From contig JAGOUU010000001.1 of the NCBI GenBank assembly GCA_018061105.1, positions 8,425 to 72,424 of the forward strand: a stretch of 64,000 bases of DNA, in the 5' to 3' direction. The stretch comes from Gammaproteobacteria bacterium. Its GTDB lineage: Bacteria > Pseudomonadota > Gammaproteobacteria > JAGOUU01. Below are positions 9,001 to 12,000 of this stretch, piece after piece; within the stretch, counting starts at the first letter, position 1, and each line of letters starts with the position of its first letter. The position numbers were made by a program.

Positions 9001-12000
9001 CTATTAATAATAATTACAGTATGCCAGCTTGGTTTGATATCTATAGTTTTGATAAAAACGGGCGTGAAGATAACCAGGGGATAGAAAAAACTAGACAACT
9101 AATTAATCAATTGATCACAGAAGAATATAACAAAGGCGTGCCTTATGAGAATATTGCCTTAGCAGGTTTTTCACAAGGGGGTGTGATAGCTTTATACACA
9201 GCCTTAAAATTTGAGCACCGTTTAGCTGGTGTATTAGGCTTATCATGTTATTTACCGCGATTCGATAAAAATTATAACTTAGCTAATAAAAATATAAAAA
9301 TTTTCTTAGCGCATGGTACTCAAGACTCTATAGTATCTTACGAGTATGGTCAATCAGCGTATAATAGACTTAAAGAATTAAATTATCATACTAAGCTTCA
9401 TAGTTATCCCATGGGCCACACGGTGTGTTTGTCAGAGATTACAGATATAGCTAATTTTCTAAAAGAAATTTTTATAGCGGCAGGGCTTTAGTTTCTAATC
9501 CCCACACCCTTGTTTAATAAATGCCAAGCGTAATAATATAAACCCAAAGTAATTAAGCTTAACATACTAACAGAGTAGAAAATATTTGATTCTTCTATAC
9601 CTAATAGACTATATCGAAAAGCATTAATATTATAAAAAATAGGATTAATCATAGCTAAGTTTTGACCGAAACTGGGTAGCATACTAATAGAGAAAAATAC
9701 ACCACCTAAATAAGTCAGTGGAGTTAGAAAAAATACGGGAATTATACTTGTATCATCAAAATTTTTGGCGTAGATACCATTGATAAACCCGGTAATCGAA
9801 AATAACAATGCTGTCATTAGTAAAACATAAATAGTTAATAAATAATGAGCAATAGCAATTTTACTAAAAAATAAAGATATCAACGTTACGATTAAGCCTA
9901 CTAATAGACCACGGATCACGCCGCCTAGTAAATAACCAGTTAAAATATAAAAATTTGACATGGGAGAAATTAATAACTCTTCAATATGACGCTGAAATTT
10001 AGCTCCAAAAAAAGAAGTTACCACATTCCCGTATGCATTAGAGATTACAGCCATCATAATCAACCCGGGAGTTATATATTGTATGTAACTATAATTATTA
10101 ATTGGTGCAATTTGTTTGCCAATCAATTGTCCAAATATAATAAAATATAAAGCTGTCGTGATAGCCGGTGGTAACAATGTCTGAGGCCATATTCTCAAAA
10201 TTCGAATAATTTCTCGTCGTACAACTGTATAGAGTCCTATTAGCATTGACATAGTTAAATCCTAGTTAAATCTTAGTTAAATCTTAGTTAAATTTTATTC
10301 TATCTATATAAATTATAAATGATGAATTTTCGTGCTATTGGTAAATAAAAAAGGCTATAATTAATTAGGTAATTTACAGATTGCAGGGCAATTCATGTTA
10401 GATTTGAGTGTAGCTGGAACAGATAAGTTTTGGCAAGATCGACAAGATCCTTTTTTAATTAAAATTATTAAAACTATGGAAGATATCGAAGACTGGACCT
10501 TAGATGGTGATCCAGAAATCGAGGCTAATTTAACTAAACTTGCCCAAGTTTTAGACAGCCCCAAAGACTTTCAAATTACCAATGAAGAATTTTATATAAA
10601 TATTCTTATCAGTATTAAGTTAAGTCGTTCTCTTAGGATAATGCAGCATATAGACAGCATTAGCCCAGGCTCAGCTTCAAAATTATTAATATTTGCTGAA
10701 GTTGCCAGTAAAGGCACGGATGATACAGCAGGTTTGTTTTTAAACCGTAATTTAGTATTTGAACGACTACAGTTACTTTCCCGCATTTTTGCACCGGAAA
10801 GATTCAGTATTGTTACACAAGCAGTGGAAAAGGTAGTTAGTTAAAAAAATTTACATGTATTATGTGCAAAAATATACCAAACGCAAAATTTATAATCAGT
10901 TTTATTTTAATTATATTTAGCTTATCAATAAGTTTTACAAGACTTACTTATGCTCAGACTCATACGCAGGCTTATACTCAGAAAACTGCGAACCCGCCTG
11001 TAAACACTCAAAATATCAAAAACACTAACAAACCTGATCCTCAAGCTATCAAAGACGAAGATACAGCTCTTATAGCCACTGTTATTTTAGTCAAAAGACA
11101 AGTTTGTTTAGATTTCATGAATCTTCGAACTAAAACTCAAAATTACCAATTTAGTTGGCAAAGCCCTATATCGCCTGCAACATTACCATACATAGGCCTA
11201 TTTTCTAATAAAGTAAATGGCATCAATGGCTGTGGGCAAATAAAATTGCCCATAGAAGCAAGAGCCCAGCAACCTAAACCTGAGTTTGGTCCTATTGTTT
11301 ATAATAATAACCAAAATAATCAATTAGGCATGTTAGAAATTTTACGGCAAAACTTCACTAAGACTATTGCAGCCGGGGGTAATCTTGACCAAATTGATAA
11401 TAAACCTTTTGTTCAAGCCTGTATGCTTTATCAAAATAAAATAGTTAAGAATCCTAATATCAAAGAAAAATTATTGACTAGTTTTGGGGTTTATTTACCG
11501 CAGTTCCCATTAGAATTAAAAACTGATGATCCTGTGTTAAAAATATATGCTGCTAATCTTAATAAAGTTTTACAATCTGTTGTTAACAAAGGCTGTGATG
11601 GGACAGGGCGAAAAAACCCAGATGCAGATCTATCTAAAAAAGATGATGGTTATGGTGGATTGAATCAATTTGCAGGTTTAGATGGCAATCCTAATTCTGA
11701 ATTAAATTTTGCCGCTAATCTTACAGCTGGAACGACGGCTGGATTAAATGATCTGACAACTGCTGGTACTACGGCTGGTTCAACCGATAGTGACTGGCCA
11801 GGTTATGATGCTAGTACAGGTGGCTCTACAGGCGGTTCTTTTGGTCCGTATAGCCCTCCGGCACCGCCATCGGGAACAACAGACTCTGGTTCAACTACCG
11901 ATACGGGTACAAGTACAAATACGAGTACGACTACAAGTACAAACACAGCAACAACAACTGGACCAACGCCACCTGAGCCTCCTCCGGGAACTAAATCTTG

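Follow-up and report, generated by a model that had tools for sequence, protein, structure and literature searches.

The intergenic region between a divergent permease gene and the Dot/Icm chaperone gene icmW of an uncultured Legionellales bacterium contains four head-to-tail 11-bp units, and the number of these units differs between strains. The array lies at positions 10253-10296 of a 64,000-nt stretch of the 80-kb contig JAGOUU010000001.1, which was analysed here at its full length (hereafter, the window). This stretch belongs to a metagenome-assembled genome, has a G+C content of ~35%, and only 6% of its sequence is intergenic. We interpret the array as a polymorphic 11-bp minisatellite, or variable-number tandem repeat (VNTR), whose two-unit core probably serves as the operator of a winged-helix regulator dimer, and we assign this interpretation a probability of roughly 0.65.

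Positions 10250-10300 read cat, followed on the plus strand by the units AGTTAAATCCT (10253-63), AGTTAAATCTT (10264-74), AGTTAAATCTT (10275-85) and AGTTAAATTTT (10286-96), and then att. The TTAA cores of the units begin at 10255, 10266, 10277 and 10288, resulting in a TTAA-N7-TTAA arrangement with a period of 11 bp, and units 2 and 3 are identical over their whole 11 bp, the bases that separate the TTAA cores included. Tandem Repeats Finder (TRF) reported the element at 10252-10297 with a period of 11, 4.2 copies, 94% matches and a score of 78. The 9-mer TAGTTAAAT begins at 10252, 10263, 10274 and 10285, in exact 11-bp steps, and is found 11 times in the window compared with 2.65 expected matches, a count which none of 100 shuffles reached. 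The repeat is genuine and far exceeds chance expectation. A previous sequence-only reading of this DNA had described four 11-bp-phased repeats at the same coordinates, which were right according to the sequence, TRF and the shuffles. It had also placed them ~100 bp upstream of icmW (10395-10844, plus strand; Pfam IcmW, 2e-43) and directly against the start of the divergent permease gene. The distance measured between the end of the array and the icmW ATG at 10395 is 98 bp, while the 'cat' at 10250-10252 is indeed the permease ATG on the minus strand, the array beginning one base further. This permease open reading frame (ORF) is of the ABC-2 transporter type (9488-10252, minus strand; Pfam ABC2_membrane, 2.5e-33), and no ATPase gene adjoins it.

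The number of units was compared between close strains. Locus L186, from run SRR11088367, contains four units and shows 100% identity with the window over 11 kb, whereas L187 (SRR17318456), with 98.1% identity over 11 kb, contains two. A third locus, L190 (SRR17318455), overlaps with the window over 1.9 kb at 96.1% identity, and between the permease gene and icmW it has exactly the sequence of L187. In both L187 and L190, the IcmW protein is identical to that of the window and the sequence reads CAT AGTTAAATCCT AGTTAAGTTTT ATTCTATC. A 22-bp segment of two units (10263-10284) is missing here, and the flanks are otherwise near-identical. This two-unit allele carries an A-to-G change giving TTAAG in its second half-site, keeps the AGGA of unit 1, has single-nucleotide polymorphisms of its own and is present in two runs. 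By our own count on the assembled sequence, the longest self-repeat inside the array is 20 nt, which is shorter than the assumed assembler k of 31 and shorter than a read. Since the window and L186 have four units and L187 and L190 have two, the array is a VNTR whose unit number differs between strains.

VNTRs are well known in Legionellales and are applied in the multiple-locus VNTR analysis (MLVA) typing of Coxiella burnetii (PMC8156542). The icmW array shares with them the short, near-identical head-to-tail units, the variation of the unit number between close strains and a location that is often intergenic. In contrast to these VNTRs, it is situated between a Dot/Icm chaperone gene and a divergent gene, and its unit corresponds to one helical turn with a response-regulator-like half-site. 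The strain variability of the array is nothing special in this genome. The window contains 20 arrays with a TRF score of ≥50, compared with 0.73 in dinucleotide shuffles, and 9 of these 20 are intergenic. Furthermore, at least five of the ten indels between the window and L187 over 11 kb are gains or losses of units at TRF-detected arrays, namely a 10-bp unit at 2703, a 9-bp in-frame unit in lysA at 7562, 20 bp at 8706, the 22 bp of the icmW array at 10263 and 12 bp in-frame in icmX at 10959.

We propose that slippage in replication or unequal recombination adds or drops whole 11-bp units. The minimal form, represented by the sister strain, would then be a direct repeat of two units whose TTAA cores lie 11 bp apart, and the window's strain would have two extra identical middle units. 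Such changes are likely tolerated because one unit is about one helical turn, whereby the flanking promoter elements keep facing the same side of the helix. Relatives with 82-88% identical IcmW (L001, L002 and L081-L086, given as nine loci) were also compared, and none of those examined contains the array, including three with the same permease-icmW synteny (L081, L082 and L001). In the more distant L003 (64% identical IcmW), a single AGTTAAATTTTA unit lies against the start codon of a fis-like gene divergent from icmW (3876-3910), and 17 consecutive bases are the same as in the window after removing the window's first three units. The identity of units 2 and 3 and the lack of the array in the relatives suggest that its origin is recent. 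For this organism, the array is a usable strain marker.

The block GCTATAAT (10354-10361, plus strand) is the sole intergenic sequence common to the window and the loci of the relatives with 82-88% identical IcmW, and it is found 33-65 nt before the ATG. It is probably the icmW -10 element, although no recognisable -35 is present at 16-18 nt. With GCTATAAT as the probable -10, the array would be located at about -72 to -115 from the predicted icmW start. A second small tandem repeat, TATAAAT × 3.1 (10307-10328, plus strand; TRF), lies between the array and this promoter. The gene order differs from that of most Legionellales, in which icmV is divergent from icmW; in the window, the lone ABC-2 permease gene is found there instead, and icmV-dotA (16232-19017) are situated 5.4 kb downstream of icmW on the same strand. 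In the relatives L083-L086, the genes before icmW are different again.

A two-unit sibling of the array, AGTTAAATCGTGATTAAATTTTAATCTA, is present in another intergenic region at 46601-46628 (plus strand). It matches the 28-mer 10275-10302 (AGTTAAATCTTAGTTAAATTTTATTCTA) at 24 of 28 positions, covering two units and the same 3′ tail, while no shuffle exceeded 22/28 (300 whole-window and 2000 intergenic shuffles). All four mismatches are located outside the TTAAAT cores, either between or beside them. The claim is confined to this ungapped 28-mer match, as aligning the two upstream regions (icmW and lipase) with gaps gave a score of 42, with a shuffle maximum of 42.5. The sibling terminates 31 nt upstream of the ATG of ORF 46659-47774, a lipase_3/alpha-beta-hydrolase gene which may be regarded as effector-like because it has only two distant homologues (43-44% identical). 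A TATAAT at 46639-46644 would put the centre of the 46601 dyad near -41, and the icmW dyad would be near -84 from the conserved -10. With both transcription starts predicted, these are typical activator positions about four helical turns apart.

Since the two-unit core recurs upstream of the lipase-like gene, it may be an operator. In geometry, the array looks like a response-regulator operator: paired direct half-sites 10-11 bp apart, as in generic OmpR/PhoB-type operators, are found at both 10253-10296 and 46601-46628, and a direct repeat with an 11-bp period is likewise the geometry of the PmrA, CpxR and enterobacterial PmrA boxes (PMC3973317). The two-unit core would probably be bound by an OmpR/PhoB-type response-regulator dimer, which need not be PmrA. 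Such a regulator would reach icmW from a position near -84 and the lipase-like gene from one near -41, and the extra units would contribute weak added sites at most. Four direct half-sites at 11 bp are the architecture expected for two OmpR/PhoB-family dimers. The pho boxes of PhoB, for instance at E. coli pstS, show this architecture, with two tandem boxes providing four 11-bp-phased direct half-sites upstream of a gene. However, the pho half-site, CTGTCAT, is unrelated to the GTTAAAT of the array, and pho boxes abut the -10, are imperfect and conserved, and do not vary in copy number. Binding by H-NS-like or other nucleoid proteins and intrinsic curvature would be further conceivable readings; the 11-bp unit matches 8 of 10 positions of the H-NS high-affinity motif.

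Several observations weigh against the interpretation as a VNTR with an operator core. The copy-number difference is represented by two alleles in two strain backgrounds, and the change could be from two to four or from four to two. The operator idea is based on two sites in one genome, and no regulator gene is in view, as neither the 64-kb window nor the 9.5 kb upstream of it contains a response-regulator gene; nothing like the motif was found in these further 9.5 kb of the same strain either, which argues against a function. The positions -84 and -41 depend on predicted transcription starts, -10-like hexamers are everywhere in AT-rich DNA, and a TAGAAT at N9 provides an alternative -10 for the 46601 site. 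By our own calculation, the chance that four differences all miss the cores is about 0.09. Finally, no conservation of the motif is seen before the lipase orthologues (43-44% identical), although this comparison says little, as the synteny is kept but the upstream DNA is unalignable.

The sequence-only reading had regarded the repeats as possible PmrA sites. The Legionella/Coxiella PmrA regulatory element is reportedly that of Zusman et al. 2007. In L. pneumophila, the PmrA matrix is cTTAATatT-N2-cTTAAtatT-N7-TATAAT, which corresponds to TTAA-N7-TTAA with a -10 hexamer 11 nt on (PMC2701608 Table S5), while the enterobacterial PmrA box consists of the two head-to-tail hexamers CTTAAT and CCTAAG, 5 bp apart (PMC3973317). 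In C. burnetii, the icmW promoter is PmrA-regulated and serves as a PmrA-dependent reporter (PMC7104363). We scanned the 120 nt upstream of icmW in 80 loci from Legionellales genomes for spacings N2-N13, and TTAA-N7-TTAA occurred in 8 of the 80, compared with 0-3 for each other spacing. When the matrix was applied to whole 8-kb loci, the top site was located upstream of icmW in L072 (29.1 bits), L075 (25.6 bits), L019 and L058, and the second-best site in L025. On these scores, a PmrA box before icmW is real and recurrent in part of the Legionellales, and the premise of the sequence-only reading, namely that PmrA controls dot/icm genes and effectors in Legionella and Coxiella from tandem TTAAT-type repeats with this spacing, was sound.

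Within the window, the best PmrA match lies outside the array. This is ATTAATATTGAGTTAATTTTAATCATATATTAT (26828-26860, plus strand), which has the form TTAA-N7-TTAA-N11-TATTAT and scored 22.0/30.9 bits (16.6 bits for the dyad alone), thereby ranking first on both strands of the window with P = 0.01 in whole-window and 0.001 in intergenic shuffles. It lies in the intergenic region that separates dotB from the orphan ORF 26912-27268, and icmT follows this ORF. The third-best match, at 2724, is also intergenic (15.6 bits) and not significant alone; the 10-bp indel at 2703 mentioned above is directly upstream of it. Since both sites use TTAAT or TTAAG, the specificity of any PmrA in this organism looks canonical and the array appears off-consensus. 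Scoring with the published matrix therefore identifies 26828, and not icmW, as the best PmrA-type promoter of the cluster, and as a candidate for a PmrA-dependent promoter of dot/icm genes, 26828 is preferable to the icmW array.

Loose TTAA-N7-TTAA occurs 17 times in the whole window compared with 9.7 expected, 4 of 100 shuffles reaching 17, and three of the 17 occurrences are the array itself. In intergenic DNA, 5 of 37 regions contain it compared with 1.45 expected (P about 0.009), and the spacings N5, N6, N8 and N9 are at expectation. Three of these regions are inside the dot/icm cluster and two outside, with similar amounts of intergenic DNA. The motif-frequency check suggested by the sequence-only reading thus shows, for the window, an intergenic enrichment but none specific to dot/icm. 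The further copies pointed out in that reading were found again: TAGTTAAAT at 24213 is 42-50 bp before the probable dotD ATG (24263), where about 45 bp had been given, and TTAAATTAAT is present at 27276, upstream of icmT (27319-27633; NCBIfam IcmT_TraK, 4.6e-19). Neither copy is an 11-bp-phased dyad. Both upstream regions (24213-24234 and 27276-27297) have in common TTAAATTAAT placed 2-4 nt before TATAAT or TATATA, an arrangement unlike the 11-bp dyad. In DNA of 35% G+C, TTAA-N7-TTAA by itself is insufficient for calling a PmrA site.

With these data, the idea that the four units are PmrA half-sites, at which two PmrA dimers activate icmW within a dot/icm and effector regulon, can be weighed, and we consider it unlikely. 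Like the Legionella/Coxiella PmrA element, the array precedes a dot/icm gene, is made of direct repeats in coding-strand orientation and has TTAA cores exactly 11 bp apart, as in the matrix. The role of icmW as a PmrA target in C. burnetii, the recurrence of boxes upstream of icmW in other Legionellales, the intergenic enrichment of TTAA-N7-TTAA and the TTAAG in the two-unit allele, which is closer to the consensus, also speak for PmrA. However, the array scored 5.2/23.3 bits for the dyad and 4.9/30.9 bits for the 33 positions including the -10, and the two-unit allele 3.4 and 2.6 bits, respectively. Its best dyad score is matched by ~200 window positions (0.16%), and its positive score comes wholly from the TTAA cores. 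In the half-site GTTAAAT, position 1 is G instead of the preferred C (-1.2 bits), and position 6 is A (-3.0 bits), a base that stands at the 0.04 floor in a matrix column made up of 93% T or G; AAT instead of TAT follows the core, and both positions are also off-consensus with respect to the enterobacterial CTTAAT half-site. The window's best sites at 26828 and 2724 use TTAAT and TTAAG instead. No -10 hexamer is present 11 nt past the last TTAA, where the sequence is TCTATA and the nearest TATA-like sequences are at N13 and N15. The conserved icmW -10 sits about 60 bp further on, and the array, at about -72 to -115, would not replace the -35 as the PmrA element does. Moreover, PmrA elements have two imperfect units, whereas the array has four near-identical ones in strain-variable number, and the relatives with 82-88% identical IcmW have neither the array nor a strong PmrA box upstream of icmW (best score ≤9.4). 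As a PmrA element, the array was rejected on half-site sequence, -10 spacing and conservation in relatives. What stands of the earlier PmrA proposal is the TTAA-N7-TTAA geometry, while the flanks, the -10 hexamer, the relatives and the strain copy number contradict it. An array of CpxR sites is highly improbable. The L. pneumophila CpxR matrix, GTAAA-N6-GWAAA, also has an 11-bp period, with an invariant G at positions 1 and 12 (PMC2701608 Table S5), and CpxR directly controls four icm/dot genes (PMC12239595). The G opening each half-site every 11 bp in the array is in line with this matrix. Nevertheless, the array was rejected as a CpxR element with 5.1/14.2 bits, a low score because its half-sites contain an extra T and read GTTAA instead of GTAAA, and the 46601 sibling, which has no G-N10-G spacing, does not fit at 2.2 bits. 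In L. pneumophila, icmW is presumably one of the four CpxR targets.

The array could instead be a neutral slippage product with no regulatory role, its TTAA cores simply coming from intergenic DNA of 65% A+T, and we regard this as possible but doubtful. The genome is full of strain-variable short tandem arrays, the units are near-identical, and the relatives do not contain the array. Comparable arrays are also found elsewhere. A metagenome scan with the two-unit pattern yielded 96 stretches, mostly chance matches in AT-rich coding DNA and none from a Legionellales relative. Many others belonged to extended 11-bp satellites of contigs that are poor in ORFs and probably eukaryotic, such as L100, which carries 26-29 copies of related 11-bp TTAA units at 2413-2733 and 3137-3421. 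In addition, 5.6 tandem copies of the same 11-mer, in near-identical form, lie upstream of a patatin-like phospholipase gene at 584-645 of the unrelated L130, a Firmicute-like contig with 28% G+C, and therefore such arrays appear to arise independently in AT-rich DNA. Against neutrality speak the significant 24/28 sibling at another promoter, the presence of at least a dyad in both alleles, and the one AGTTAAATTTTA unit of L003 (64% identity) at the equivalent spot by a divergent start codon. It is also decidedly unlikely that the array serves the divergent permease gene as a 5′ leader and/or promoter with unit 1 as the ribosome-binding site. In both alleles, the CC variant of unit 1 provides a Shine-Dalgarno-like AGGA (10260-10263, minus strand), of predicted function, 7 nt before the permease ATG. 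The minus strand also has a weak sigma-70-like promoter, with its -35 at 10319-10314 and its -10, TAAAAT, at 10297-10292, from which transcription would begin within the array. Yet the promoter scan gave 2 matches compared with 1.6 in shuffles, the two-unit strain has TAAAAC in place of this -10, and the leader RNA does not fold stably (z = +1.3). For either strand of the array region, neither an Rfam match nor a stable fold was obtained, and a role for the permease gene would leave the sibling at 46601 unexplained.

The array borders on a Dot/Icm type IVB secretion cluster which extends from about 10.4 to 39.4 kb of the window. Besides icmW, this cluster contains icmV, dotA, a dotL-like gene, dotM, icmS, dotD, dotC, dotB and icmT, as well as three dotI/icmL-like genes, dotH, dotG, icmG and icmJ. 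The probable icmX was assigned by position without a family match, and an ORF of 1012 aa, likewise without a family match, was taken as dotO from its size and position. Between icmX and icmV, the cluster also encodes a 602-aa protein with two PAN/apple domains (12456-14264), and the same gene follows icmX in the relative L082. Further downstream, 53958-56645 and 56724-58463 encode two large proteins with eukaryote-type domains, including ephrin-receptor-like, TNFR-like and NCD3G cysteine-rich domains and He_PIG Ig-like repeats, in a region with 41-45% G+C compared with about 35% elsewhere. The domains and the G+C content suggest that these proteins were likely acquired horizontally and possibly have a role in host interaction.

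Should the dyad prove to be a real operator, a small regulon consisting of icmW and the lipase-like gene would be defined for a Legionellales lineage that is deep and uncultured, and the corresponding regulator would read GTTAAAT, which is not the canonical PmrA half-site. There is a slim prospect that copy number, with two or four half-sites in a preserved helical phase, makes strains differ or switch in how strongly the type IV secretion system and a co-regulated lipase-like putative effector are coupled to an environmental signal. With a real operator, the copy-number polymorphism would represent a natural experiment on how many half-sites the icmW promoter requires.

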